Shown here piece after piece: positions 2,968 to 49,690 of a stretch of DNA of 55,695 bases; the stretch's first letter is position 1; each line of letters starts with the position of its first letter. The position numbers and the translations under genes were made by a program. Under the pieces are notes generated by a model that saw nothing but the letters and a program-made list of their open reading frames with translations, was not told the DNA's origin and did not search any database. Origin of the DNA: Candidatus Taylorbacteria bacterium RIFCSPHIGHO2_02_FULL_43_32b (GTDB taxonomy: Bacteria > Patescibacteriota > Minisyncoccia > Phycocordibacterales > 2-02-FULL-43-11); NCBI GenBank assembly GCA_001820955.1, contig MHRK01000047.1, forward strand, positions 1 through 55,695, written 5' to 3'.

Positions 2968-3117
2968 AAAAGAGGTGAGTATTGAAGCGAATAATTTTAC
3001 ATTTTGATTTTTTAAGTTTACATTAGCGATATGTCACTACCAGAAGATTGGACCCGTCCCGTTAGAAGTTTGGCGAACAAGGCTCTAAAGTAAATTTGTA
3101 AACTGATTTTAAATATC

Positions 3118-10238: not shown

Positions 10239-10314
10239 ATGGAACCTTTGAAAATCAAATTGTGGCCGTATTGGGTGAAAGGAAATTGAAAATGTAAAAA
10301 TCAAAATGGAAAAT

Positions 10315-10428
10315 GACCCGCCTGCTTTGAAGTGACGAGGCGCGATGAAAGTAATAGTTATCGAGTAATGTATAAATGTTATGTTAAGCATTGAGACCAG
10401 AGCCAAAGCATTTCGGGCAGGCAATGTA
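10315..10428 (+). repeat. 114-bp conserved 5' module (promoter-like region plus first 16 codons), copy 1
   Basis: 113/114 identical to the reverse complement of 24186-24299. Contains tataaat just upstream of ATG 10381. Confidence 0.85.
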
Positions 10429-10746
10429 GAATTAAAAATTTCGAAGTGGAGTACTTGGCCATATTGGTTGAGGGGAGGAATGTTGTTTGCTATCGTATTC
10501 ATTCTCTGGCTATGTCTCGGGTCTTATGTTGATAAAATGATCTGTATACCAACGCTAATTGTGGCCTGTCATCAATTTGCTTCTCTTCCTCTAACAAACC
10601 AAATAATTAATCCGCTGATCTGGATGCTCTTCGGTAGTTCTGATTTGATAATATATATTGCGAGTGGAACCGTTTACTTCCTTTGCGGGGCAATTCTCGG
10701 CTGGCTCTATGGCAAAATCAAACCACATAAAATTTTGTATTCTTAA
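10381..10746 (+). CDS. Small multi-TM membrane protein, WPYWLxGG...GWLYGKIK paralog family (P1)
   Basis: MLSIETRAKAFRAGNV..WPYWLRGG..GAILGWLYGKIKPHKILYS. Paralogs are at 22367..22741 and 23922..24233. Confidence 0.6.
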   Translation: MLSIETRAKAFRAGNVELKISKWSTWPYWLRGGMLFAIVFILWLCLGSYVDKMICIPTLIVACHQFASLPLTNQIINPLIWMLFGSSDLIIYIASGTVYFLCGAILGWLYGKIKPHKILYS

Positions 10747-10877
10747 ATTTTTACATTTAACACTGTCATTTTACATTTTGATATTTAAATTTTGCATTTT
10801 AATGCTCTATGGCAAAATTAAAAATCGCAAATTGTCTCAACTAAACGCTTCACGCTAAACGCTTTACGCTTTATCTC

Positions 10878-17150: not shown

Positions 17151-17170
17151 ACCGAAGGTTTAAAAAGGAA

Positions 17171-17299
17171 TTAAAAATGTAAAGATCAAAATTCAAAGTG
17201 ACAATGCAAAATTATAAAATGGAATACGTTAAATAGTTTTTCTCCAATTTTTGCATTTTAAACTGTCATTTTACATTTTGATATTTGAATTTTACATTA
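17171..17299. repeat. Family F1 palindromic element (empty, no passenger) between ssb and rpsR
   Basis: Arms are aaaatgtaaagatcaaaattcaaagtgacaatgcaaaatt and aatttttgcattttaaactgtcattttacattttgatatttgaattttacatt. Confidence 0.7.
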
Positions 17300-17350
17300 C
17301 GCTTGCTACAACACATAATTTACAAAATTTTAGAAACTTAAATACAAAAC

Positions 17351-21988: not shown

Positions 21989-22083
21989 TCTTTCAGTTTT
22001 TCTCTAATCAGCTTCAAAATCTCGTTCTCTATCTTGGAGTTTTCCTTAAGGAATTGTCTGGTGGCGTCATAACCGCGGCCAAT
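21989..22083 (-). pseudogene. Detached duplicate of the recA 3' end (last ~31 codons)
   Basis: 94/95 identical to 22808-22902. It would encode ..[32 protein letters not shown], in frame behind the TGA stop of ORF 22087..22341. Confidence 0.85.
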
Positions 22084-22086
22084 TGA

Positions 22087-22341
22087 TCAGAATTTGAGCT
22101 TAACGCCAGTCTTCTTAGCAATTTCTTTAATCCATTCTTCGTGACGGCTGAGCTGCATTTTAATAGCGCTGTATTCAATTCGAAGGTCATCGATAACTTT
22201 TGCAAGTCCATCCACGGCCGTGGTTAACCCTTGCACGACTTCTTTGAGTGAAGAAACATCCTCCACTAGCTCTTTCAGGTCGTTTTTAGTTGCCAGAACG
22301 GAAGTTAATTTATCGATGTCTTTGTCTGTAAGCATGTTCAA
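22087..22341 (-). CDS. 84-aa coiled-coil hypothetical protein; the last codons are derived from recA sequence
   Basis: MNMLTDKDIDKLTSVLATKNDLKELVEDV... The C-terminal GVKL codons (gttaagct) match recA ..AVKLG.., followed by a 15-nt insert carrying the stop. Confidence 0.55.
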   Translation of the reverse strand: MNMLTDKDIDKLTSVLATKNDLKELVEDVSSLKEVVQGLTTAVDGLAKVIDDLRIEYSAIKMQLSRHEEWIKEIAKKTGVKLKF

Positions 22342-22366
22342 AGTTTAATTTGGTCAAAGCGAGCTG

Positions 22367-22741
22367 TCAATTTTGTGAAGTCGCGGAGCTTTTGCGAGTT
22401 TTTATTTTGCCGTAAAGCCAGCCGAATAGTGCACCTGCAATAAACGTAAAAACAATATTTAGCAGAACACCAGAAGGAGTCGGTAGCGCCCCTAGTTCAG
22501 TTTGTCTGAACATTCCTTCGTCTGTAATTATTATACTTGGAATGAAAGAAATTAATCCATTACCGATTAGGGTTAATGGTCCCATAATTTTCAAAAGTGA
22601 ATGCAAAAGACCTCCTTCTTGCTGCGGTACAATTGAATTATCTATTAAAATTGGAATGCTGATTATTATTACAACAGCCGATATCATAACACCGCCTTTA
22701 AACCAATACGGCCAATTTTCCCAAGTTTTCATGTTTGGCAA
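22367..22741 (-). CDS. Small multi-TM membrane protein, WPYW...GWLYGKIK family (P2)
   Basis: MPNMKTWENWPYWFKGGVMIS...AGALFGWLYGKIKTRKSSATSQN. Confidence 0.65.
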   Translation of the reverse strand: MPNMKTWENWPYWFKGGVMISAVVIIISIPILIDNSIVPQQEGGLLHSLLKIMGPLTLIGNGLISFIPSIIITDEGMFRQTELGALPTPSGVLLNIVFTFIAGALFGWLYGKIKTRKSSATSQN

Positions 22742-22801
22742 TTATTTGTAACTTTTGTTTCCCGCTTTCGCTGGAACGTTTTACGCTTCACGTTCTGGGT
22801 T

Positions 22802-23848
22802 CTACGATTCCTTCAGTTTTTCTCTAATCAGCTTCAAAATCTCGTTCTCTATCTTGGAGTTTTCCTTAAGGAATTGTCTGGTGGCGTCATAACCGCGGCC
22901 AAGCTTAACGGCTTCGCCTTTGCCGTCCGGGGCGGGGAATTCATATGACTGACCAGCTTTTTTTATCAATCCAAATTTCTCGCCGAGAGCAATAACTTCA
23001 CCTTCGCGCGAAATTCCTTCGTTATACATAAGATCGAATTCGGTCTGTTTAAAGGGAGCAGCCACTTTGTTTTTGACTACCTTTACTCTCACTCTTCCGC
23101 CGACAACTTCTTCGCCTTTTTTGATTTGAGCAATGCGGCGGATATCCAATCTAACCGAAGTGTAGAATTTGAGTGCTTTGCCTCCTGGGGTAGTCTCTGG
23201 GTTGCCAAACATTACGCCGATTTGCATGCGGATCTGGTTGATGAAAATGACGATGGTCTTTGAGCGGGCCACAATGGCGGTCAATTTGCGAAGAGCTTGT
23301 GACATTAGTCTAGCCTGTTTGCCGACGTGCATGGCGCCCATGTCTCCCTCGATTTCGTCTTTAGGTGTTAGTGCCGCGACAGAGTCGACGACCACTACAT
23401 CAATTTTCCCCGAACGTACCAAACTTTCGCAGATCTCAAGAGCTTGCTCGCCGGTGTCCGGTTGGGAAATGAGAAGATCATCAATTTTTACTCCGATTCT
23501 TTTTGAATATTCGGGGTCCATGGCGTGCTCGGCATCTATAAAAGCGCAGATGCCGCCCTTTTTTTGGGCTTCGGCGATTACGTGAAGTGACAGTGTTGTT
23601 TTTCCGCTTGACTCGGGGCCGAATATTTCGATGATGCGTCCGCGAGGAAGTCCTCCGACTCCAAGAGCCGCATCAAGTCCGATAGAACCTGTCGGGATGG
23701 CGTCAATGCCGACTTTAGGCTTTTCGCCGAGCTTCATAATGGCTTCTTCGCCGAACTTGGTTTTGATTGCGTCTATCGTATTTTGGATATCAACTTGACC
23801 TACAGTCTTTGCTTCTTTCGGGGCTTTATCTTTTGTTTTGAATCCCAT
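22802..23848 (-). CDS. recA: Recombinase RecA
   Basis: [17 protein letters not shown] (Walker A), [38 protein letters not shown]. Confidence 0.97.
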
Positions 23849-23921
23849 GATAGTTTAGATTACTAAATAATTTAAAATTTAAAGATCAAAATGCAAAATG
23901 ACAATTAAAAATTGAAAAATT

Positions 23922-24233
23922 TCAAGTCGACGAATGCCGGGTCTTGATTTTTTTGATGGACCAACCGATAAAAAGTGCTACCAAGGAAACTGAAAAAAGT
24001 ATGCTCAGGTATACCACATAGTCATTTTTCAAATTAGTGAGGATGATGCCGAATCCTTTCGGACATGGACTATACCCATTTTCTGCCAAGCCTACGCAGG
24101 ATGGCTGAGCCATTAACCATAAATCCAAAATTATACTAATGGTTACCCCTAATATTATCCCTCGCAACCAATATTTTTGTGACTTTACATTGCCTGCCCG
24201 AAATGCTTTGGCTCTGGTCTCAATGCTTAACAT
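23922..24233 (-). CDS. Small membrane protein (P3) sharing its first 16 codons with P1
   Basis: MLSIETRAKAFRAGNV then a divergent body ..YWLRGIILG...LFIGWSIKKIKTRHSST. Confidence 0.55.
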   Translation of the reverse strand: MLSIETRAKAFRAGNVKSQKYWLRGIILGVTISIILDLWLMAQPSCVGLAENGYSPCPKGFGIILTNLKNDYVVYLSILFSVSLVALFIGWSIKKIKTRHSST

Positions 24234-24299
24234 AACATTTATACATTACTCGATAACTATTACTTTCATCGCGCCTCGTCACTTCGAAGCAGGCGGGTC
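24186..24299 (-). repeat. 114-bp conserved 5' module, copy 2 (inverted relative to 10315-10428)
   Basis: Direct comparison shows one mismatch (t/c within gctttgaag vs gcttcgaag). Confidence 0.85.
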
Positions 24300-24323
24300 A
24301 TTTTTCATTTTGATTTTTGCATT

Positions 24324-24689
24324 TTACATTTCTTTTGGTGTACTCATGACCATAAACTCAAGTAGTTTTTCGGTTTCTTTGCCGAAACGATCTTTAGCTT
24401 CAAATTTGATTATATTATAGCCACTCTGGAGTATCAATTTTTCGGAAAACGCCCCAGTTTCGTCAATAAAAATGGGGGAGTCGTTCAATGTTATGGAGTT
24501 GACCCTAAAGGCTTTTCCTCTTACTTCCACTTGAGGTCCGAAGATCTCTGTTTTATCTTGCGGGTAGATGATTTGTATTTCCGGACCAGAGAGATAATCA
24601 CGGCTTTCGTAATATATGTACCAGATCAAAAAACTTCCTGCTACGATCGAGAGGATAATCGAAAATATCATTTTTGCTCCTTTTCTCAT
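24324..24689 (-). CDS. Membrane-anchored hypothetical protein (single N-terminal TM plus a beta-rich domain)
   Basis: 121 aa. ATGA-type 4-nt overlap with the ftsK stop. Confidence 0.6.
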   Translation of the reverse strand: MRKGAKMIFSIILSIVAGSFLIWYIYYESRDYLSGPEIQIIYPQDKTEIFGPQVEVRGKAFRVNSITLNDSPIFIDETGAFSEKLILQSGYNIIKFEAKDRFGKETEKLLEFMVMSTPKEM

Positions 24690-37250: not shown

Positions 37251-37946
37251 ATGTTAGAAACATGGAGTGAAGCCTTGCAAACAGCTTTTGAGGATTTATG
37301 GCTCGGTGTTCTCAATTTTGTTCCCCGATTGGTTATGGCCCTGATCATTTTTTTGGTGGGTTGGGCGATAGGGGCGCTTTTGGATAAGGTAGTTGCCCAA
37401 GTTGTCAGCTCTTTGAAGATTGACGCAGCTCTTCGCCGCGCGAAATTGGATGAACTGCTTCAGAAAGCCGGTTACAATCTCAATTCCGGTATGTTTTTGG
37501 GCGGACTCGTAAAATGGTTTGTCATAGTCGCCTTTCTTATCGCTTCCGTTGATGTCCTTGGTCTTCAGGGGGTCAATGATTTTCTTGTCCGGGTTGTTGA
37601 GTATTTACCGAATGTCATAGTTGCCGCCCTTATAATATTAGTTGCCGCGATTATTGCTGAGATTGTACAGAAAGTTGTGGTTGGGGCGGCCCAAGCCGCC
37701 GCAATCGGCAATGCCAGTTTCGCCGGCTTGGTTGCCAAGTGGTCAATCTGGGTTTTTGCCATCATGGCCGCTTTGCTTCAGCTTCAGATTGTCGCTCCGT
37801 TTATTCAGACATTGTTTACCGGAATTGTTGTGGCTATCGCGCTTGGACTCGGACTATCATTCGGTCTTGGTGGTCAGGAAGCTGCCGCAAGAGCTATTGA
37901 AAAGGTGACGACAGAGATTTCAAACAGGAGGCACCATCAGGGGTAA
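37251..37946 (+). CDS. Conserved-TM-helix-repeat membrane protein (mechanosensitive-channel-related family)
   Basis: ...LNFVPRLVMALIIFLVGWAIGALLDKVV...GGLVKWFVIVAFLIASVDVLGL... is a repeated TM-helix unit. Confidence 0.7.
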   Translation: MLETWSEALQTAFEDLWLGVLNFVPRLVMALIIFLVGWAIGALLDKVVAQVVSSLKIDAALRRAKLDELLQKAGYNLNSGMFLGGLVKWFVIVAFLIASVDVLGLQGVNDFLVRVVEYLPNVIVAALIILVAAIIAEIVQKVVVGAAQAAAIGNASFAGLVAKWSIWVFAIMAALLQLQIVAPFIQTLFTGIVVAIALGLGLSFGLGGQEAAARAIEKVTTEISNRRHHQG

Positions 37947-38260
37947 GAATTATGAATTAGGAATAATGAATTAAGGTAAAGACCAGATTCAAGATTCAGA
38001 ATAAAAGAAAAAGCCGCCGTGTCCGAAAGGTCACGGCGGTTTTCGTTGAACGGGGCGTGCACTTTTCGGTTTCGTCTATCGAGGCGCCCCTTGAAGAACA
38101 TTATACCTGTGGCCGTTGATAGACCACTTAAAATAATTCCGAAAAGTAGACCAAATATAATTGATCGGGAAGTGACGGGTTCCCAGAAATCCCTGGTTAA
38201 GTGGGCGACAGGCAGCCAAATGATAAAACCGATCAGGAAGCAGATAGTTCCAAAGAGCAT
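37937..38260 (-). CDS. Possible 2-TM small membrane protein whose C-terminal tail is encoded by repeat sequence
   Basis: MLFGTICFLIGFIIWL...IIFGLLFGIILSGLSTATGIMFF... The 3' third runs through a terminator hairpin (38011-38044) and the F2 repeat. Weak call. Confidence 0.3.
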   Translation of the reverse strand: MLFGTICFLIGFIIWLPVAHLTRDFWEPVTSRSIIFGLLFGIILSGLSTATGIMFFKGRLDRRNRKVHAPFNENRRDLSDTAAFSFILNLESGLYLNSLFLIHNSYP

Positions 38261-38385
38261 AATTTATAGGGTTGAGACGCAAACTTCTTTTAGGGTGGCA
38301 GGTTATTAAATTAGTGTCAAGAAAAATAAAACGGTTATTTGTCAACGATTTTGGCATAATTCCTTATTCCTAATTCATAATTCAC
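37946..38385. mobile_element. Family F2 inverted repeats bracketing a 107-codon minus-strand ORF
   Basis: gaattatgaattaggaataatgaattaagg (37946-37975) matches the inverse of ccttattcctaattcataattc (38360-38381). Confidence 0.4.
38011..38044 (+). terminator. Intrinsic terminator after 37251..37946
   Basis: Stem gccgccgtg-tccgaaaggt-cacggcggt followed by tttt. Confidence 0.6.
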
Positions 38386-39251: not shown

Positions 39252-39452
39252 ACGTTCGAACTGCGAGTGGTCGCGGTGCGAACGGTGGTTAAAATATTTC
39301 CTAACAGGAAATAAGAGCATATGGTGGATGCCTTGGCTCGAGAGAGGCGATGAAGGACGTAGCGTGGCTGCGATAAGCTTCGGGGAGGTGCCTAGCAACC
39401 TTTGATCCGGAGATGTCCGAATGGGGAAACCCTGCGGCGTAAAACGCCGTAA

Positions 39453-39644
39453 CCGAAGCATCACATGGAATGTGATGAAAAATGCAAAATGTAAATATCA
39501 AAATTAAAAATGACAGTTAAAAATGTAAAAATGAAAGAAATTGGAAAATGTTTTTGTTTTCAATTTTAAAAATTTGCATTGTCATTTTACACTTTGATTT
39601 TTTAATTTTAAATTTAAAGCATCGCGTTTCGCGCGATGCTTCGG
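39453..39644 (+). other. 23S intervening sequence 1 (helix 9 region), containing a family F1 palindrome
   Basis: Closing stem ccgaagcatc...gatgcttcgg. Modules are catcacatggaatgtgatg, an F1 palindrome, then gcatcgcgtttcgcgcgatgc. Confidence 0.7.
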
Positions 39645-39745
39645 AGCGTACCCTGGGAAGTAAAACATTTCAGTACCAGGAGGAGTAGAAACTAATCAGC
39701 ATTCCGTAAGTAGCGGCGAGCGAAAGCGGAGAAGCCCAAACCCGG

Positions 39746-39906
39746 CCGCATCTCATTGCATTCGATGCGGAATTCTTAATTTTTAAATTTTGTAATTTTT
39801 TAAATAATTTTCTAATTTCTGAATGTTTACACATTTGGTCATTGGGATTTGTTTAGAAATTAAAAATTAGAAATTAGAAATTCCACTCGAGCGTAGCGAG
39901 ATGTGG
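39746..39906 (+). other. 23S intervening sequence 2 (domain I), containing a family F3 element
   Basis: Closing stem ccgcatctc...gagatgtgg. The interior, ~120 nt (aatttttaaat...ttagaaattaaaaattagaaattagaaattcc), is closely similar to 44332-44442. Confidence 0.65.
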
Positions 39907-40221
39907 CAGGGGGTTGTAAGGTAACGGCGTCGGTTTTATATCGAGAAGAGTTACAAAATTGTTTGTTAATTGAATCTGCTGGAAAGCGGAGCCCAAGAAG
40001 GTGATAGCCCTGTAAGTGAAAATAAACAATCTCTTTTGCCGTTATTCTTGAGTACTTCGAGACACGAATAGCTCGGAGGAATCTGCCGGAACTAACCGGT
40101 AAGGCTAAATACTCATCGAGACCGATAGTGAACTAGTACCGCGAGGGAAAGGTGAAAAGCAGTCCGTTGAGGACGATGAAATAGACCTGAAACCATATTG
40201 CTTACAAAGAGTTGTAGCGGG

Positions 40222-40368
40222 CGCATCACATGGGATGTGATGCGGATATGAATTATGAATAAGGAATTATGAATTATGCCGGGAAAATTGCGTAGCAATT
40301 TTCCCCAACCATTATTCATAATTCATACTTCTTAATTCATGCTTGAGCATCGCGTTTCGCGTGATGCG
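40222..40368 (+). other. 23S intervening sequence 3 (helix 25 region), containing a family F2 palindrome
   Basis: gcatcacatgggatgtgatgc, then an F2 palindrome (gaattatgaataaggaattatgaattatg...), then gcatcgcgtttcgcgtgatgc. Confidence 0.7.
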
Positions 40369-40994
40369 TCCGTGGCAGCGTGCCTATTGAAGAATGAGCC
40401 AACGAGTTGATGCATTCGGCGAGGCGAACTCCCGTTAAAGGAGGAAGCCGTAGGGAAACCGAGTGTTAATAGCGCGAATAGTCTAATGCATCAGACCCGA
40501 AGCCAAGTGAGCTTGCCTTGAGCAGGATGAACCCTCGAGAAATCGAGGGGAAGGTCCGAACGCTAGAGCTGTGCAATACTCTGCGATGACTTGAGGTAAG
40601 AAGTGATAAGCTAATCGAACTTGGTAATAGCTGGTTCTCTCCGAAATAGCTTTTGGGCTAGCGTCGAGTGATCCTTTAAGGGGTAGAGCACTGGATGGTC
40701 TGGACAGGTCGAAAGACCGCTAGACCAATCAAACTCCGAATACTTAGAGTTATAACTCGGCAGTTACACCGTGGGGGCGAAGCTTCACTGGTGAAAAGGG
40801 AAACAGCCCGGATCTCCAAATAAGGTCCCTAAATTTATGCTAAGTGCATCACAAGGTGGTGAAATTTCTCAAACAATGAGGATGTCGGCTTAGAAGCAGC
40901 CATCATTCAAAGAAAGCGTAACAGCTCACTCATCGAGAGATTTTGCGCCGAAGATAATCGGGGCTAAGCATAGTACCGAATTTGAGGGCACAGG

Positions 40995-41131
40995 AAGCAT
41001 CACATTGCATGTGATGCGAATTATGCAGTATGAATTATGAATTAAGGTTTTCGGAAAATCGCTTTGCGATTTTCCTCCATAATACATAATTCATTATTCA
41101 TAATTCGGCATCGTGCGTAGCGCGATGCTTC
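40995..41131 (+). other. 23S intervening sequence 4 (helix 45 region), containing a family F2 palindrome
   Basis: Closing stem gaagcatc...gatgcttc. Modules are catcacattgcatgtgatg, an F2 palindrome, then gcatcgtgcgtagcgcgatgc. Confidence 0.7.
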
Positions 41132-41673
41132 TCGTGCGGTAGGAGAGTTTTCGCATCTGCTGTGAAGGTGAAGGGGTGACCCACACTGGAGCGTTGCGAA
41201 GTAAGAATGTTGGCACAAGTAACCACATTAGGGGTGAGAAACCCCTACGCCGAAATACCAAGGTTTCCTTGGCAATGATTGTCAGCCAAGGGTTAGTCGG
41301 TCCTAAGGGAATGGCGAAAGCCGCACCCGATGGATATACGGTTAATATTCCGTAACTTTCGTGCGAAACGATGAGATGACGAAGTGTAGTATGCTCTGCG
41401 CATTATTGGATTTGACGTTTGACGCGTCAGGACGGCTTTTAGGTAAGTCCGGGAGCCTGCCTTTAATGGCGATTCCAAACGCGGCAAGAATCCCAAGGGC
41501 AACCGAGGGAAATAGGGCAAAGCACGCTTCCGAGAAAAGTCTCTAAGTTTATTCGCATGAAATCCGTACCGCAAACCGACACAGGTGGTAACGTCGAGAA
41601 GACGAAGGCGAACGAGTGAAGGTTCTCCAAGGAACTCGGCAAAAAATCAGCCGTAACTTCGGAATAAGGCTTT

Positions 41674-41985
41674 CCAGCACCACTTTTTGGTTTTAAAATA
41701 TAGTTGTGTATTACGTCTATTTACAAAAACACACTGTAACCAAAGAGATTTATATTGGTAAAACAAATAATCTCAAGCGACGTTTGAGCGAACATAATAA
41801 CGGTGAACAAAAATCTACACATCGGAAAGATGGCGAATGGAAATTTGTTTATCTGGAGGTATATCGCTCAAAAAAAGATGCAGATGATCGTGAGATGAAG
41901 CTTAAGCATCACGGTCGTGCGAAACAAGAGCTATATAAAAGAATCAGCTCGTCGCTTGAAGATTAAAACCAAAAAGTGGTGCTGG
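41674..41985 (+). other. Stem-bounded 23S insertion (helix 63 region) carrying a GIY-YIG ORF
   Basis: A perfect 22-bp closing stem ccagcaccactttttggtttta / taaaaccaaaaagtggtgctgg encloses ORF 41706..41966. Confidence 0.7.
41706..41966 (+). CDS. GIY-YIG domain nuclease (small YhbQ/UPF0213-like)
   Basis: GTG start. YYVYLQKHTVTKEIYIGKTNNLKRRLSEHNNG...WKFVYLEVYRSKKDADDREMKLK. Confidence 0.75.
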   Translation: MYYVYLQKHTVTKEIYIGKTNNLKRRLSEHNNGEQKSTHRKDGEWKFVYLEVYRSKKDADDREMKLKHHGRAKQELYKRISSSLED

Positions 41986-42103
41986 ATGCAACGAAAGACT
42001 GCTTGGCAACTGTTTATCAAAAACACAGCTCCCTGCGAACTCGTAAGAGGATGTATAGGGGGTGACACTTGACCAATGCCAGAAGGTCAAACGACGGCGT
42101 TGC

Positions 42104-42250
42104 GTGCATCACATGGAATGTGATGCGGGATGAATTATGAATAAAGAATTATGAATTATGGAGGAAAATCGCAAAGCGATTTTCCGAAAACCCTAATTAC
42201 TAATTCATACTACATAATTTAATTCTCACATCGCGCTTCGCGTGATGCAC
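42104..42250 (+). other. 23S intervening sequence 5 (domain IV), containing a family F2 palindrome
   Basis: Closing stem gtgcatc...gatgcac. Modules are catcacatggaatgtgatg, an F2 palindrome, then catcgcgcttcgcgtgatg. Confidence 0.65.
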
Positions 42251-42319
42251 GTGGTGACTGTCGTAAGCCCTGGTGAATGTCGGCCTTAACTATAAGGGTC
42301 CTAAGGTAGCGCAATTCCT

Positions 42320-43381
42320 AAAAGACTGGGACCATCCAAAAGGGATGGAAAACTTGGCTGTATGCGGGAAACTCCGGTAGTATCTCGAGACTACTTTGTC
42401 GGGTATAATATGCCGATGAGTAAAAATGTTTCGAGTGGCTCCGATTTATGTCGGAGGCCGGACAATCCGCAGGAAACGTATGAAGTTAGTAATTTCTATT
42501 ATTCAGGATTCTTTGCAGCAGAAATGTCCTGTTCGATCATTAAAGCAACAAATCATCATCCAAAAGGCTATTACTATGCCGTTGATATAACGGTGTCGAA
42601 TGCGGATGTAAAGTTGCTGAAGAAGGTGAATCGGGCAGTCATGAAAGGCTCCGGGATTATAAGCCCCGTAAAAGGAGCTTTCAATCTTTCGGCGCGCGGA
42701 AAAGAAAAGGTTCGTATTGTCCTGGATTTTCTTCAGAAGTATCCGATTATTGTTGGCGATCTTGCTAAAAATCGGATAGCGATCTTAAGGAAGGCGCTTG
42801 CGTATCTTGATAATCATCAAGGGCACGTAACGCATGAAGAAAAAACAAAAATCATGGATACAATGCGGCGTAATCTCCGAATGCTAAAAGAAAAAGGAGT
42901 AATTGAAAAATCATTTGACGTCGAACCGGTGAATACTGATGCTGTTGGCTATTTCCTTTCAGGAGTAGCGGATGGTGAGGGTTCATTTGGGTCTAAAATG
43001 TCCGGTGATCGTAAGGAACCGTATTTTTTTGTCGCGATGAAAGATCAGAAAATTATTGATCTGTTCCGAAAATTTATAAATTACGGAAATGTTCGGGGGC
43101 GAAAAGATAAAGTGTTCCATTGCGAAATAAATAAACGGGATAAGCTAAAAGAAATTTGTACCTTATTTCTTTTGCGATATCCTTTGCATAACGCGCGACA
43201 AAAGGCGCGGTTGCGAGAACTTCAGCGGATCCTCAACGACTATACGCCAAGCCCCGCAATGGCGGGGATGATATAGTCTGAACTGCATGGCGACATGCAG
43301 AGTTCGGCTCGCGTCGAACCGCTTCGATTAATTTTAATCGGAGTCAAAATCTTGCACCCGCAAGGTTTCAGTAACAGAGTG
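42320..43381 (+). mobile_element. Group I intron with a LAGLIDADG ORF, inserted in ..GCGAAAUUCCU|UGUCGGGUAAG.. (about E. coli 1943)
   Basis: The 5' exon ends in U (42319) and the intron ends in G (43381). An S-element-like gatatagtc lies at 43269-43277, and the exon sequence is restored on removal. Confidence 0.8.
42362..43276 (+). CDS. Double-motif LAGLIDADG homing endonuclease
   Basis: Motifs YYSGFFAAEMSCSI and VGYFLSGVADGEGSFG. The start is uncertain (the internal ATG 42410 is possible). Confidence 0.85.
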   Translation: MRETPVVSRDYFVGYNMPMSKNVSSGSDLCRRPDNPQETYEVSNFYYSGFFAAEMSCSIIKATNHHPKGYYYAVDITVSNADVKLLKKVNRAVMKGSGIISPVKGAFNLSARGKEKVRIVLDFLQKYPIIVGDLAKNRIAILRKALAYLDNHQGHVTHEEKTKIMDTMRRNLRMLKEKGVIEKSFDVEPVNTDAVGYFLSGVADGEGSFGSKMSGDRKEPYFFVAMKDQKIIDLFRKFINYGNVRGRKDKVFHCEINKRDKLKEICTLFLLRYPLHNARQKARLRELQRILNDYTPSPAMAGMI

Positions 43382-43698
43382 TGTCGGGTAAGTTCCGACG
43401 CGTTGAATAGTGTCATGTCTGAGCAACTGTCTCGGAGAACAGCTCGGTGAAAATACAGTACCGGTGAAGATGCCGGTTACCTGCAGCTAGACGAAAAGAC
43501 CCTGGAAGCTTTACTACAACTTGGTATTGAGTATATGTTTTTTATGCGTAGCGTAGACGTTAGGCTTTGAAGTGTCCCTTTCGGGGGGCATGGAGCCGCC
43601 AATGAAACAGCGTTCTTAAAAAATATATATTCTAACCTGTGCGGCAAAAACGTACGGGAACAGTATCTGGCGGGTAGTTTTGGTGGGGCGCTATCCTT

Positions 43699-44657
43699 GA
43701 GAACGTGAATTTTTTCGTGTTCTCAAACTATGGCGCCTCCGGCAAGGTTAATCTCTTGCGAAAAAAATAAAGTTAGAGGGCGTCATAAATTCAAAATGCA
43801 AAAATCAAAATGAAAAATGACCCCAGTAGCAGAGCAAATCTCGCTACGGGGCAGGCAATTGCAAAATGAAAAAATGACGGGTAAATCAGCGATATGCTGG
43901 GAAATCTGGTGTATCCGCAGCTACTTGGTGTACAATAGGAATGTTATAAATATCTAAATTTTTAATAACATGTCCGAAGAAATGCCAAGTGAAAATGCTA
44001 GCGGTGCAGAAAACCAGCAGGAATCTACTAACGAGCTTATTGAACGGTTTAGAAACCAACCAATTGAACAATATAAAATCGAGTTAATCAGAAAAGCCGA
44101 TGTAATTGAAAATAGGATTAGACATGTTAAAGACCTAATTCAAGAGTACGACGGAACTCATGGCGATATGAGTAGTATTTTTACGGGTCGATTGGGTGCA
44201 ATAGGAAGAAAACTTGATGAAATGGAGGAAGCCTTGGACTTTAATTTGAAGTCAGTAGCATTCATGAAAAGTCAGGAAAAGTAGTGGATATTCCTCAGAG
44301 ACCACCAGCTGATGCCTGTGAATACAGGAATGATTAATTTTTGAATTTTTCAATTTTTAAATAATGTTTCAATTTCTTAATGTTTAAGACATTGGGTTAT
44401 TGGGGTTTATTTAGAAATTAAAAATTAGAAATTAAGAATTCCGATGTACTCATCGGTTAATGTATGGTCCGAACTCTACCCTTCGATAAGGAGGGCTTGC
44501 CCGACTCAGGGCAAGTAGCGATATAGAGAGACAGGCAGAAATGTCCTGTCTGTAAACAAGATTTGTGCTTTCGTTTGCGCATGTATTCGTAGTCATTCGT
44601 TATGATTCGTATACATTCGTAGATTGGCACTTAATTTTGTTGTACACAACAAAATTG
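43699..44657 (+). mobile_element. 0.96-kb composite insertion in the 23S helix 81 loop region (class unresolved)
   Basis: Flanked by ..ggggcgctatcctt| and |tctaaaaagtaacgaaggag. Contains F1 (43786-43880), F3 (44332-44442) and F4 (44578-44624) repeats and a 104-codon ORF. U at -1 and a terminal G are possible. Confidence 0.6.
43970..44284 (+). CDS. Hypothetical helical/acidic 104-aa protein encoded inside the 23S insertion
   Basis: ORF track only. No nuclease, maturase or RT motif recognised. Confidence 0.35.
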   Translation: MSEEMPSENASGAENQQESTNELIERFRNQPIEQYKIELIRKADVIENRIRHVKDLIQEYDGTHGDMSSIFTGRLGAIGRKLDEMEEALDFNLKSVAFMKSQEK

Positions 44658-44899
44658 TCTAAAAAGTAACGAAGGAGTCTATTAAGGTTCCCTAGGCGCG
44701 AATGGAAACCGTGCCGATAGTGCAATGGCAAAAGGGAGCTTGACTGCGAGGGGGACATCCCAAGCAGGTGCGAAAGCAGAGCATAGTGAACCGATGGCCC
44801 GCGTTAGACGCGGCCAGAGATTATCGGACAAAAGCTACTCCAGGGATAACAGGCTAGTTCCGCCTAAGAGTTCATATCGACGGCGGAGTTCGGCACCTC

Positions 44900-45287
44900 A
44901 AATCGGGGCGCCATACCAGAAATGGTATTAGCTACTTCGACATAACACACAGGAGTGAACCCTGTTATGTTGTTGAAAAATATTGGCTTATAACGGTGGA
45001 ATCCTACGAATAAATTTTTTGCAAAATTTAGGCGAGGACAATCCCGTGGGAACCCAGCACCATTTATCGTAAGACGGTGAATGAAGTGGTGTTGGCGGCA
45101 GTGCTATTTATGTGACTATTTCCAGAAAGTAAATAAATGGTGCTGGACCCGTAGAGACTTTCTCGATGACCCAAATCGAGACTAGTCCGGAATAAATTTC
45201 CGGGCTAACACGCCAACTCCTCATCCTCCAAAAGAGGGAAGGAAGAAGATATAGTCCATACAATTGGAAACAATTGCTAAAAGATAC
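44900..45287 (+). mobile_element. ORF-less group-I-like intron in ..GGCACCUC|GAUGUCGG.. (about E. coli 2500, peptidyl-transferase centre)
   Basis: aagatatagtcc (S-element-like) at 45247-45258, followed by a caattg-gaaa-caattg hairpin. It shares ggct(t)ataacggtggaatc with the next intron. The canonical U(-1)/terminal-G junction cannot be placed. Confidence 0.65.
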
Positions 45288-45319
45288 GATGTCGGCTTAT
45301 CACATCCCGGGGCTGTAGA

Positions 45320-45353
<34 letters not shown>

Positions 45354-45442
45354 TGCTACATGAGCTGGGTTCAGACCGTCGCGAGACAGGTTGGTCTCCT
45401 ATCTGCTGCAGGCGTTGATTCTTGAGGAGATTCGTTTCTAGT

Positions 45443-45890
45443 AAGTAATTGCTACTTTATGGAGTAATCCATAATGACAATTTGGCTAATAACGGTGGAA
45501 TCTTAAGGTTTTTGGTCTGTTGATAACCATATCGAACACGGTCCGGTGATTATGGTACAATTTACTTGAGGACCAGAAATATTTAAGACAATACCGTGGG
45601 AAGCATTAGGAAATTAAAAATGCAAATATCAAAATCAAAAAATACTGATTAAATTTTGCGAAAGCAAAATTTACAATCTGAATAGAATTTGTCCGCCTTC
45701 GGCGGACGCTTCAATTTTACATTTTGATTTTTAAACTTTACATTTTCTTTTGCCCCGTAACGACTGGAGTCCGCCTTATCGGCGGACGAAGATAGTGGTG
45801 GCGAACGATTTCGCGCCATTATAATATGCCAACGACCAATTAGATTGGTCGAAGATATAGTCTACACACGTAGTGATACGTGAATATGTG
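45443..45890 (+). mobile_element. ORF-less group-I-like intron splitting the sarcin-ricin loop (..CUAGU|ACGAGAGGACC..)
   Basis: The 5' exon ends in U (45442) and the intron ends in G (45890). It has aagatatagtc at 45852-45862 and carries a family F1 palindrome (45611-45746) in a peripheral region. Confidence 0.7.
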
Positions 45891-46130
45891 ACGAGAGGAC
45901 CGAAACGAACTGACCTCTGGTGTACCTGCTGTCGTGCCAACGGCACCGCAGGGCAGCTATGTCGGGAACGGATAACCGCTGAAAGCATCTAAGTGGGAAA
46001 CCGCCTCCAAGATTAGGAATCGTTTAGACCCGTGGAAGACTACCACGTTGATAGGCTTTAGGTGTACGCACAGTAATGTGTTGAGCCGTGAAGTACTAAT
46101 CCGTCGATCTTGTTAGGAAATATTGGAGCC

Positions 46131-46395: not shown

Positions 46396-46470
46396 GCGCA
46401 TGTAACTCAGCGGTAGAGTATGGCTTTCGTAAGGCCAGAGTCATTGGTTCAAATCCAATCATGCGCTCCA
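46396..46470 (+). tRNA. tRNA-Thr (anticodon CGU), CCA encoded
   Basis: Manual cloverleaf: gcgcatg/catgcgc acceptor, actc/gagt D stem, tggct-ttCGTaa-ggcca anticodon arm, attgg-ttcaaat-ccaat T arm, discriminator t, cca. Confidence 0.9.
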
Positions 46471-46476
46471 AGCTTT

Positions 46477-46567
46477 CGGAGGGGTGGTGTAATGGGCTCT
46501 GGGCACATTAGTTGTTTCACTTGATGGGTGAGAATTTGTCCAAGTTCAAAACTTGCCCCTCCGCCCA
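46477..46567 (+). ncRNA. 91-nt tRNA-like element (long variable region; anticodon not assignable)
   Basis: Perfect 7-bp acceptor cggaggg/ccctccg, T arm ccaag-ttcaaaa-cttgc and a 3' c-cca. However, position 8 is G, no clean D stem is found, and the best anticodon stem encloses a 9-nt loop (ttgtttcac). Confidence 0.3.
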
Positions 46568-46823
46568 ATTTTCGGGCTCCGTCCCTTCCGCGGGTGCGGA
46601 AACTGAGTGCCCGTAACTAACTGGGGCGCAACTAAGAATTAGAGGACAATCTTTCGTTCTCTTCTAGCTTAGTTGTCGCCCCGGTTAGAATTATGCTAAT
46701 CTCTTTGCATTAAAGGTTTTGTTCCCCAGTACAACAGCAAAGCTGTGTACGGGGCAGGCGGGTGATTTATTTCAGGGACTAAATCACGCAAAATTTTGAC
46801 AATATAATATTTGAACTCAAAGT

Positions 46824-46936
46824 CTCTGGTGCTTTGGCGAGAGGGAAACACCTCTTCCTCCGCCTCCGTAAAGCTTTGGCGGATTGCGATTTGTATCCAA
46901 TCGCTTCGCTTTTGGACAAATCGGGAACATTCCGAC
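46824..46936 (+). pseudogene. 5S-like 5' half carrying a ~70-nt insertion
   Basis: ctctggtgctttggcgagagggaaacacctcttcc [insert] acattccgac, compared with canonical gtctggtgacttgacgcggtggaaacacctcttcccattccgaac. Confidence 0.55.
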
Positions 46937-46985
46937 TTGCCCCGTCAGAAAAATTGAGTATATTGATAATTAGTTCACTTTTTTA

Positions 46986-47094
46986 GTCTGGTGACTTGAC
47001 GCGGTGGAAACACCTCTTCCCATTCCGAACAGAGCAGTTAAGCACCGTAGTACCGATGATACCCTTTGGTGGGAAAAGTAGGTAGTCGCCAGGC
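46986..47094 (+). rRNA. rrf: 5S rRNA (canonical copy)
   Basis: gtctggtgac...ggaaacacctcttcccattccgaacagagcagttaagc...ccgatgat..ggtgggaaaagtaggtagtcgccaggc. Helix I is complementary. Confidence 0.88.
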
Positions 47095-47126
47095 TAAAGT
47101 AGTGAACTCAATTTTTCTTTCCGGGG

Positions 47127-47279
47127 ACAGAGCAGTTAAGCCTCTTAGCGCCGATGAGTCACGCATAATTTTCTGCTGAAAATTTGCGCGACCCCGCCTC
47201 GGGCCGCCGCCCTCCGGCTTTGAATCCTCCAGGTGTTCGGATTCAACCCTTTGGTGGGAAAAGTAGGTAAGTGCCAGGG
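47127..47279 (+). pseudogene. 5S-like 3' half carrying a ~85-nt insertion
   Basis: acagagcagttaagcctcttagcgccgatgagtc [insert] accctttggtgggaaaagtaggtaagtgccaggg. Its 3' end can pair (with G-U pairs) with 46824-46832. Confidence 0.55.
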
Positions 47280-47310
47280 ACTTTGTGTTTAAGTCAAAAT
47301 TTAGGCGGGC

Positions 47311-47350
47311 GAACAGAGCAGTCAAGCTCTGTAGAGACGATGAGTCGTGG
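47311..47350 (+). pseudogene. Third partial 5S-derived fragment
   Basis: gaacagagcagtcaagctctgtagagacgatgagtcgtgg. Confidence 0.45.
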
Positions 47351-49611: not shown

Positions 49612-49690
49612 GGGAATGAATTATGAATTAGGGTGAATGCAAAATGCAAAAATCAAAATGGAAAATGACAATGCAAAATGCAAAAATTTT
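49612..49690. repeat. Adjacent single arms of families F2 and F1 after the SEDS gene
   Basis: gaatgaattatgaattagggtgaatgcaaaatgcaaaaatcaaaatggaaaatgacaatgcaaaatgcaaaaatttt. Confidence 0.55.

Follow-up and report, generated by a model that had tools for sequence, protein, structure and literature searches.

What are two inverted copies of an A-rich repeat doing on either side of a small membrane-protein gene, and why do the same repeats stand elsewhere as close pairs? The question is raised by a stretch of 55,695 nucleotides (nt; hereafter "the window"), contig MHRK01000047.1 from Candidatus Taylorbacteria bacterium RIFCSPHIGHO2_02_FULL_43_32b, in which the repeat family, named F1, encloses two such genes, P1 and P3. 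A preliminary description of the window took F1 for a family of MITEs (miniature inverted-repeat transposable elements), non-autonomous and sometimes loaded with a membrane-protein passenger. We have compared the window with the genome that holds it (G000; 1.01 Mb in 63 contigs, labelled C7, C15, C19, and so on), with three congeners (G001, G002, and G003), and with other genomes, among them G027 from another family. As terminal inverted repeats, the F1 arms bound a cassette of the intervening sequence (IVS) type, the native cargo of which is a gene of the PF05635 four-helix-bundle family (IVP, or S23p). In G000, the family exists in three states: the full unit (on C19), gene-less hairpins, 100-135 nt long, located in spacers or at the tips of 23S rRNA helices, and units in which the cargo has been replaced. 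As an overall explanation, a family of IVS-type cassettes with IVP as its native cargo, found empty or reloaded, is the best available, and we consider it probable.

The F1 core, ATCAAAATGNAAAATGAC, is matched 13 times in the window, where dinucleotide shuffles lead one to expect 0.06 (0 of 100 shuffles reach 13), and 47 times across the 1.01 Mb of G000, with up to two mismatches allowed in both counts. Aligned arms give a consensus of ~52 nt (aAATGyAAAATkyAAAwATCAAAATGnAAAATGACAATGCAAAATnnAAAAt), that is, AAAATGN heptamers in a 7-nt register, A-rich on one strand and free of internal palindromes; the outer edge is sharp, 16-17 nt 5' of the core, and the inner edge fades. Strict arrays with a lag of 7 number 57 in G000 versus 0-4 at lags 5, 6, and 8-11, and this excess means that the heptamer build is not an effect of composition. 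Chance low complexity as the source of the arms is ruled out by the shuffles and the lag controls. Because the arrangement also recurs throughout the genome, neither of the two outcomes that would have undone the preliminary description (AT-rich low complexity, or no repetition elsewhere) came about. The census of arm pairs that it had proposed yields 14 short gene-less hairpins, two of them within the 23S rRNA gene, and six pairs that enclose a single gene. The four close convergent pairs of the window and the distant pairs around P1 and P3 are all real (Table 1).

Among elements from several genomes, 77 of 129 measure 100-140 nt, and the arms tend to lie tight against genes: in 30 of 145, an outward start codon stands exactly 6-7 nt from the boundary, and in 26, an upstream stop codon is located within the first heptamer or overlaps it. 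More than 119 stretches of species-representative genomes contain an exact copy of the 21-base motif ATCAAAATGNAAAATGACAATG. Judged by record titles, most of these belong to the candidate phyla radiation (CPR), in many classes, and a minority to Gammaproteobacteria, Chloroflexi, Planctomycetia, Pacearchaeota, and others, with the labels taken as given. Within each heptamer, five positions are conserved in both arms and the other two drift, a pattern that looks more like sequence recognition than like selection for base pairing. F1 hairpins fold better than shuffled sequences, at -20 to -67 kcal/mol, with z-scores down to -6.8.

The evidence that identifies the native cargo comes from the IVP gene on C19 (16283-16654), which has F1 arms on both sides and encodes a PF05635 protein matching PDB 2RLD (E = 1.4e-14). 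We collected 80 homologous loci, 67-81% identical to this protein, from many CPR classes. The F1 core (at most two mismatches) is present with its ATG as codon 1 in 76 of the 80; an inverted core follows downstream in 72, in 57 of which it lies 16-18 nt past the stop codon; and both arms are present at 69 loci. The leader, the start codon (ATG within ATCAAA-ATG-NAAAATGAC), and the first 6-10 codons all lie in the start-side arm, the complement of which is the stop-side arm, ~17 nt past the stop codon. Codon 1 is ATG or GTG in 76 of 76 start-side arms, whereas the stop-side arms keep a start codon in 35 of 72; likewise, a T at the variable position N, which would give ATG-TAA, is seen in 0 of 76 start-side arms versus 11 of 72 stop-side arms. 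In other words, the coding constraint acts on the start-side arm only. The search for an autonomous partner with the same termini, as suggested by the preliminary description, therefore ends with a gene of this kind, although it is an IVP gene and not a transposase or recombinase. The 80 units lie between protein genes. None of them adjoins 23S sequence, and no Rfam RNA was found at 20 sampled loci, with rRNA often missing from such assemblies. Shortened elements with IVP remnants also exist (loci L241, E = 7e-14, and L245, E = 0.011), and the F1-type IVP gene, intact in G000, G007, and G013, is decayed in G021 and G024.

The association between IVP genes and heptamer arms is not confined to F1. 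Each of the six PF05635 genes in G000 lies between heptamer arms of its own that run into the first codons, and the arm family differs from gene to gene: F1 (AAAATGN) at C19:16283, F2 (GAATTAT/GAATAAT) at C19:14177, F3 (AATTTTT/AAATTAT) on C15, AGGCNCT on C58, GAATCNN on C44, and GACTTAT on C49. The last five match the other palindrome families of the genome. Of 76 canonical IVP loci surveyed in many groups of the CPR, 53 contributed an upstream arm to a lag test, in which self-match at lag 7 was 0.76, against 0.24-0.36 at other lags, and 7 was the best lag in 52 of the 53; complementarity between the upstream and downstream arms of the same locus exceeded that of cross-locus pairs (median 17.25 versus 10). 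Outside the CPR, IVP genes on plasmids of Nostoc punctiforme and Trichormus variabilis are likewise armed, with (G)AGTCAG[GA] arrays, and so is one on an Azospirillum plasmid, with GGACAGA/GGACGGA arrays. A related arrangement was seen on plasmid pPg_01 of Pseudanabaena galeata (locus L456), where an IVP gene lies between cas6 and cas4 and is flanked by long same-strand arrays, AAAGCTA x ~15 and AAAGCCA x ~10, which are direct and not inverted.

If IVP is the native cargo, what are P1 and P3? The six genes enclosed by F1 pairs in G000 are those for P1 (121 aa), P3 (103 aa), a P3-like protein (C7), the IVP of C19, a SET-domain protein, and a NUDIX hydrolase, and the congener G003 adds two units, with an AdoMet-decarboxylase-like gene (AdoMet_dc) and an S51 peptidase gene (Peptidase_S51). 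The passengers are therefore diverse and not membrane-specific; the earlier impression that they are typically membrane proteins fits only three of the six in G000. What the units share is their reading frame. In all eight paired gene-bearing units (six in G000, two in G003), the core ATG and the open reading frame (ORF) agree in frame, for which the chance is (1/3)^8, and five of the eight open straight from this ATG as M-[EKQ]-N-D-x-x-K. A ninth in-frame case is described below.

The P1 and P3 units, at first sight exceptions to this rule, share 161 nt that are 94% identical, made up of the arm and a nested element of 105 nt, here called X, which has inverted ends (GCCTGCTTTG...CAAAGCA..GCAGGC) and only two copies in G000, identical at 104 of 105 positions. 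X interrupts the frame of the core ATG and, in the P1 unit, brings its own in-frame ATG at 10381 (MLSIETRAKAFRAGNV). When X is deleted in silico, P1 reads MENDNVELKISKWSTWPYWLRGG and P3 reads MKNDNVKSQKYWLRG... from the core ATG. At the orthologous PerM-MetRS junction of G003, the F1 arm has no X and a P1-like ORF begins at the core ATG (MQNDNVKFKILSWGTWPYWGRGG...); this X-less ortholog, the ninth in-frame case, confirms X as a nested insert in the P1 and P3 arms. Both units thus represent the foreign-cargo state, later hit by an element that now supplies the start codon. The G003 unit closes with an AGGCTCT-type array in place of an F1 arm, and therefore arm families can mix. It should be mentioned that remnants of a P1-like gene adjoin the P1 unit on both sides (10239-10282 and 10805-10858) and match a second P1-like gene of G003 (MKFKSWPYWVKG...), from which it follows that the P1 locus has also been reshaped by recombination among paralogues.

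P1 belongs to a multi-copy family of small membrane proteins without a Pfam match, with the signature WPYW[LV][KR]GG near the N-terminus and G[WL]xYGKIK near the C-terminus. Further members are encoded at 22367-22741 (-) of the window, C15:3647-4350, and C7:3916-4194, clustered in variable spacers beside heptamer arrays. At C15:4330-4720, the 3' end of the GAPDH gene is present as a displaced copy, with a palindrome and two P1-like membrane genes in tandem after it, a parallel to the displaced recA tail at 21989-22902 of the window. A metagenomic contig (L100; JGI 3300009296, 1949 nt) joins this GAPDH flank of C15 to the P1 unit and MetRS. Its junction lies within a WPYW-coding remnant, and the contig has arisen either from recombination between P1-like paralogues or as a chimera of assembly.

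Comparison with the congeners indicates that whole units come and go. The PerM-MetRS spacer, which holds the P1 unit, measures 691 nt in G000, and its counterparts in G001 and G002 measure 52 and 27 nt, respectively. The spacer before recA, occupied by F1-P3-F1 in G000, measures 475 nt; those of G001, G002, and G003 measure 22, 125, and 107 nt, respectively, and the one in G003 contains a hairpin of a different heptamer family, AGGCTYT. With one mismatch allowed across genomes, F1 arms number 37 in G000, 40 in G003, 30 in G004, and 32 in G027, and zero in G001 and G002. In this respect the preliminary description was sound: F1 is a dispersed family of inverted arms, empty or with one small gene, and the P1 and P3 units are missing at the congener junctions. 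Exact-protein look-ups returned the identical P1 unit in nine further contigs or assemblies, and no polymorphism of the unit was seen among these nine. There is no target-site duplication, the flank repeat lengths of 67 pairs being those of a mismatched-flank control.

The gene-less state is also seen in the 23S rRNA gene of the window (39301-46107). Two close pairs, which had been listed at 39478-39608 and 45611-45746, lie inside this gene and not in ordinary spacers. Among its inserts, F1 is present in three, F2 in three, and a third palindrome family in two. F1 forms hairpins at Escherichia coli positions ~150-176 and ~2630-2657, and a solo arm stands in the insert at ~2262-2321; the F2 hairpins lie at ~1865-1889 and, in the regions of helix 25 and helix 45, at ~517-618 and ~1156-1208. 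Together with a GC-richer base (39449-39642), the first F1 hairpin makes one long hairpin of -67.1 kcal/mol (z = -6.8). The Rfam family search gave no 23S matches in relatives and a DNA query did, most of these 23S genes being truncated by contig ends. At the same helix tip (~150-176), the hairpin is plain and short in G007, G013, G030, and G036, F1-like in G003, and of another heptamer family (TTGACAA) in G031.

Other inserts of this gene are of different kinds. One of 1062 nt at E. coli 1943/1944 has a LAGLIDADG ORF (42362-43276), one at ~1704-1770 has a GIY-YIG ORF (41706-41966), and one at ~2501 measures 387 nt. A 104-aa ORF in a 23S insert (43970-44284) was considered as a further unit and rejected, as it lacks both a Pfam match and the form of a clean unit. 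In the region 46396-47343, a tRNA-Thr(CGT) gene separates the 23S gene from the 5S gene, and a 34-nt piece of the 5S region is repeated at 47026, 47124, and 47310 (repeat family D19), which suggests partial 5S duplications. A 515F-like primer site of 16S rRNA (up to two mismatches) was not found in the whole G000 assembly; either its 16S gene was not assembled or the gene is interrupted there.

How might such a cassette work? The unit would be transcribed inside a host transcript, either an operon or an rRNA, and its arms would pair into a long imperfect stem. RNase III, which G000 encodes, might then cut the stem and release a small mRNA with a short leader ahead of the arm ATG, the host RNA being merely cut, as with the intervening sequences of rRNA. 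By analogy with these, we hold the release of a mini-mRNA to be plausible, though a little short of probable. Units and hairpins would be gained and lost as blocks without target duplication, and they may spread by recombination between arms (exchange of empty and filled sites, mixing of arm families) plus some further insertion step, with the five conserved bases of the heptamer serving as protein-recognised sites, possibly for a pentameric IVP. This route of spread is put forward tentatively. An equally speculative idea is that each pentameric IVP recognises its cognate heptamer array (5 subunits x 7 nt = 35 nt), in DNA or in RNA, and so drives copying, exchange, or protection of the cassette; on that idea, since the arm supplies the start codon, the cassette could capture arbitrary small genes. 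If these suggestions hold, F1 would be a transposase-free system of gene capture and expression that can live in any transcribed spacer or rRNA helix tip, and the excess of intergenic heptamers in bacteria, such as the GGGAATC pairs of Xanthomonas and the cyanobacterial arrays, would be its footprint.

Several observations weigh against a cassette of this type. The arms of a unit do not covary (own-pair agreement 43.1 versus 43.6 for permuted pairs), so that pairing at the wobble positions is not selected and compensatory pairing is unsupported, and the AU-rich stems reach only a moderate stability (z = -1.5 to -4). In Coxiella burnetii, S23p is probably not made after excision (PMC4990558). 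The F1-type IVP gene is not assembled in the hairpin-rich genomes G003, G004, and G027; IVP is therefore not needed for the hairpins to persist, and the idea that their abundance requires it is unsupported. The history of the P1 locus is tangled, and it also fits rearrangement among paralogues over a clean insertion.

The alternatives must be set against the same facts. A classical MITE or mobile insertion cassette would be moved by a transposase encoded elsewhere, most likely a Y1 HUH enzyme (IS200/RAYT type) acting on DNA hairpins. The sharp termini (AATK...MATT), the many copies, and the presence or absence at orthologous sites all agree with this, and even the missing target duplication is what an HUH enzyme is expected to leave. 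Y1_Tnp matches occur at six loci in G000 and at least once in all five other F1-bearing genomes tested, versus two of five F1-free genomes, and a RAYT type does lie between inverted short-word arrays, its upstream arm in G003 (GAAAATGAAAAATGGAAATGAAAATGGGG) resembling F1 heptamers. On the contrary, no Y1 gene is flanked by F1 arms in G000, G003, G004, G027, G007, or G013; the Y1/RAYT genes of G000 and its relatives have REP-like or word-array flanks of their own, and no transposase sharing the F1 termini, nor any rve-type match, was found in G000. The RAYT of the MPNHWH type occurs in G019, G037, and G039, where F1 arms number 0-1, and is missing from the assembly of G004, so that RAYT as the partner of F1 was rejected on both flanks and distribution. 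F1 arms are not individually palindromic, as REPs are, and the gene that consistently bears F1 termini is that of IVP, not a transposase. We therefore consider movement by a transposase improbable. From the preliminary description, what stands is the dispersed, passenger-carrying family and the lack of a transposase in the window; the strict MITE reading fails for lack of target-site duplication, of a matching transposase, and of covariation between arms. REPtron-like loci are nonetheless genuine in these genomes: at C53:7600-8700, a RAYT-like Y1 gene (MPNHWH type, 223 aa) lies between inverted arrays of a ~19-nt tandem word, CAACAAAGAAATGGGGACA, an arm-gene-arm design with a longer period than the heptamer.

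It may also be argued that the hairpins do not move at all but are host elements under selection, such as intercistronic sites of RNA processing, stabilisers or terminators of mRNA, or translation-initiation modules, from which the enclosed genes borrow signals. That many arms abut coding sequences (the 30 start codons and 26 overlapping stops among 145 arms), that the exact 21-base core is conserved over many CPR classes, and that the arm ATG is, by the frame and constraint tests, a working start codon would all be expected of such elements. They would hardly be expected to number zero in G001 and G002 and 30-40 in G003 and G004, to leave the orthologous spacers of relatives short and empty, to be replaced at one site by different heptamer families in different genomes, to sit at rRNA helix tips where they serve no gene, or to occur as decayed and nested copies; this explanation seems to us slightly less probable still than a transposase. 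The least credible of the three, which we regard as very unlikely, is an integron-like system, in which the hairpins would be folded attC-like sites and the single-gene cassettes would be moved by a tyrosine recombinase. Promoter-less single ORFs that each end in an imperfect palindrome, diverse cargo without target duplication, and one intact tyrosine recombinase gene in G000 speak for it. Against it, the cassettes are scattered among housekeeping genes and not arrayed beside an integrase, the sole integrase gene (C27) is near no F1 element, the arms stand on both sides and include a start codon, unlike attC, and the native cargo is one conserved gene family. An IVS-type cassette accordingly remains the explanation that we prefer.

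The positions of the elements are collected in Table 1. F2 arms, of GAATTAT/GAATAAT heptamers, do flank the ORF at 37937-38260 (-), as had been described. This ORF starts outside the arm, and at its C-terminal end it continues through the stop-side arm; as a case of a start codon in the arm it is ruled out by a 100-nt spacer with stop codons in between.

Table 1. Elements of the F1 family and related features in the window.
Feature	Position	Strand	Remarks
P1 unit	10283-10800		F1-armed, P1 cargo, nested X
F1 left arm of P1 unit, outer heptamers and core	10283-10317	+	AAATTGAAAATGTAAAAATCAAAATGGAAAATGAC; core ATG 10306-10308
Element X, nested 105-nt insert in P1 left arm	10318-10422	+	at GAC^AATG
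F1 left arm of P1 unit, part beyond X	10423-10439	+	AATGTAGAATTAAAAAT, now coding
P1, 121-aa small membrane protein, cargo	10381-10746	+	no Pfam match
F1 right arm of P1 unit	10745-10800	-	
Cores around P1	10300-10317 and 10765-10782		distant convergent pair
N-terminal remnant of resident P1-like gene	10239-10282	+	MEPLKIKLWPYWVKG; adjoins left arm outside
C-terminal remnant of resident P1-like gene	10805-10858	+	LYGKIKNRKLSQLNASR*; adjoins right arm outside; continues into ACGCTWW heptamer array
P3 unit	23868-24331		F1-armed, P3 cargo, nested X
F1 arm, start side of P3, outer heptamers and core	24297-24331	-	
Element X, second copy	24192-24296	-	identical arm position
P3, 103-aa small membrane protein, cargo	23922-24233	-	no Pfam match
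F1 arm, stop side of P3	23868-23921	+	
Cores around P3	23885-23902 and 24297-24314		distant convergent pair
Gene-less F1 hairpin downstream of ssb	17168-17302		-26.9 kcal/mol, z = -3.5
Gene-less F1 hairpin, sugar transferase/epimerase spacer	54151-54252		
Gene-less F1 hairpin in 23S rRNA gene	39478-39612		helix tip, E. coli ~150-176
Gene-less F1 hairpin in 23S rRNA gene	45611-45746		E. coli ~2630-2657; nested GC mini-hairpins
Solo F1 arm within 23S insert	43787-43856	+	35-nt X-like insert 43822-43856 at GAC^AAT, X's arm position
Solo F1 arm downstream of FtsW/RodA gene	49635-49688	+	
Solo degenerate F1 arm	2991-3024	-	
F2-armed unit	37937-38382	-	107-aa membrane ORF 37937-38260; GAATTAT-type arms 37946-37977 and 38352-38382
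23S rRNA gene	39301-46107	+	6.8 kb, ~10 inserts

Among known systems, MITEs and mobile insertion cassettes (for example MIC231, derived from IS231, in Bacillus cereus) are bounded by inverted repeats, lack a transposase, occur in many copies, empty or with passengers, and are polymorphic for presence. F1 resembles them in all these respects, including presence or absence at orthologous sites, but has neither target-site duplication nor a parent insertion sequence or transposase that shares its ends; its full form contains a non-enzymatic four-helix-bundle gene, and the start codon of the cargo lies in the arm. The Correia or NEMIS elements of Neisseria and the ERIC elements of enterobacteria are intergenic hairpin repeats of ~100-150 nt that lie tight against genes and are co-transcribed; NEMIS are cut by RNase III, and Correia elements duplicate a TA target. 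The gene-less F1 hairpins are similar in size and are likewise intergenic and close to genes, but we know of no heptamer build, no cognate gene-bearing form, and no copies in rRNA for the Neisseria and enterobacterial elements. With the REP/REPIN-RAYT system, F1 shares hairpin-forming doublets, the lack of target duplication, and a cognate gene between its own repeats; the difference is that its arms are not individually palindromic and that the enclosed gene is IVP, not RAYT. From integron cassettes, F1 units differ in being scattered among housekeeping genes, none of them adjoining the C27 integrase gene.

The closest relatives are the ORF-bearing intervening sequences of 23S rRNA, known from Coxiella and Leptospira (PMC4990558). 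The preliminary description knew of no described system of this kind, but the design of F1 matches theirs: terminal inverted repeats, heptamers before the start codon, and a putative RNase III stem. The Coxiella burnetii IVS, in helix 45 of 23S rRNA, is regarded as selfish and horizontally spread; its terminal inverted repeats pair into a 28-bp stem that RNase III cuts in the middle, at the first repeat, and its S23p ORF is preceded by two or three tandem GACAGAT heptamers (PMC4990558). The S23p of Xanthomonas campestris is a homopentameric ring (PMC4990558). The F1 family has the same long-stem terminal repeats, a PF05635 ORF in the loop, and heptamers before the start, and 23S helix tips, those in the regions of helix 25 and helix 45 among them, harbour gene-less hairpins of F1 and F2. 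A PF05635 ORF between the repeats is found in the F1 family at large, not in the P1 and P3 units, and a 23S helix-tip site is seen for the gene-less copies at 39478-39612 and 45611-45746 and not for P1, P3, or any of the 80 IVP units, in assemblies from which rRNA is often missing. F1 further differs in that its CPR IVP units lie between protein genes (0 of 80 adjoining 23S), that it has dozens of gene-less copies per genome, and that some units bear non-IVP genes fused in frame to the start codon of the arm. RNase III excision is a feature of the Coxiella element, and only by analogy would it extend to F1. Shorter inserts are also relevant: Tsurumaki et al. (2024) reported short non-intron inserts at IVS sites in CPR rRNA (PMC11270868), which, like the ORF-less 23S IVSs of the Salmonella type, are extended hairpins of ~100-170 nt that replace helix-tip loops, as the F1 hairpins do. 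They were not reported as dispersed families, as built of heptamers, or as sharing the termini of IVP genes, and the text mentions neither "palindrom" nor "inverted repeat" (PMC11270868).

Intergenic heptamer arrays have been described by Rehm et al. (2015) in Xanthomonas (GGGAATC) and Nostoc (GGGGAYT) as simple repeats that form G-quadruplexes, with 70-75 convergent, stem-loop-capable GGGAATC array pairs per Xanthomonas genome and no link to S23p drawn (PMC4692102). They share with F1 the tandem heptamers in spacers and, in Xanthomonas, the inverted pairs; the link to IVP is what distinguishes F1, and the armed IVP genes reported here from outside the CPR come from cyanobacterial and Azospirillum plasmids. 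IVP genes inside cas loci were noted by Zhang and Ye (2013) (PMC3936711). In the searchable literature, we found no description of IVP cassettes outside rRNA, of gene-less derivatives, or of the capture of foreign genes. To our knowledge, the rRNA IVSs and S23p/IVP have gone ~30 years without a known function or mode of spread, and we know of no explanation for the over-representation of heptamers in bacterial spacers. G000 shows all states of one family together: an IVP unit that is complete, hairpins without a gene in operon spacers and 23S rRNA, and units with exchanged cargo. It adds to the known systems one family shared by operon spacers and rRNA helix tips, an eight-of-eight frame rule for foreign cargo, a nested X with an X-less ortholog, six palindrome families matched one-to-one with six IVP paralogues, and negative tests of co-occurrence and covariation. 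These states make recognition of heptamers by IVP, release of mini-mRNAs by RNase III, and translation driven by the arm directly testable hypotheses. For annotation, they account for most of the "word palindromes" and short rRNA inserts of CPR genomes, and for these tiny genomes the cassettes are a route to gain and lose small accessory genes without transposases. The F1 cassette thus links the intervening sequences of rRNA, the heptamer repeats of bacteria, and the capture of genes.

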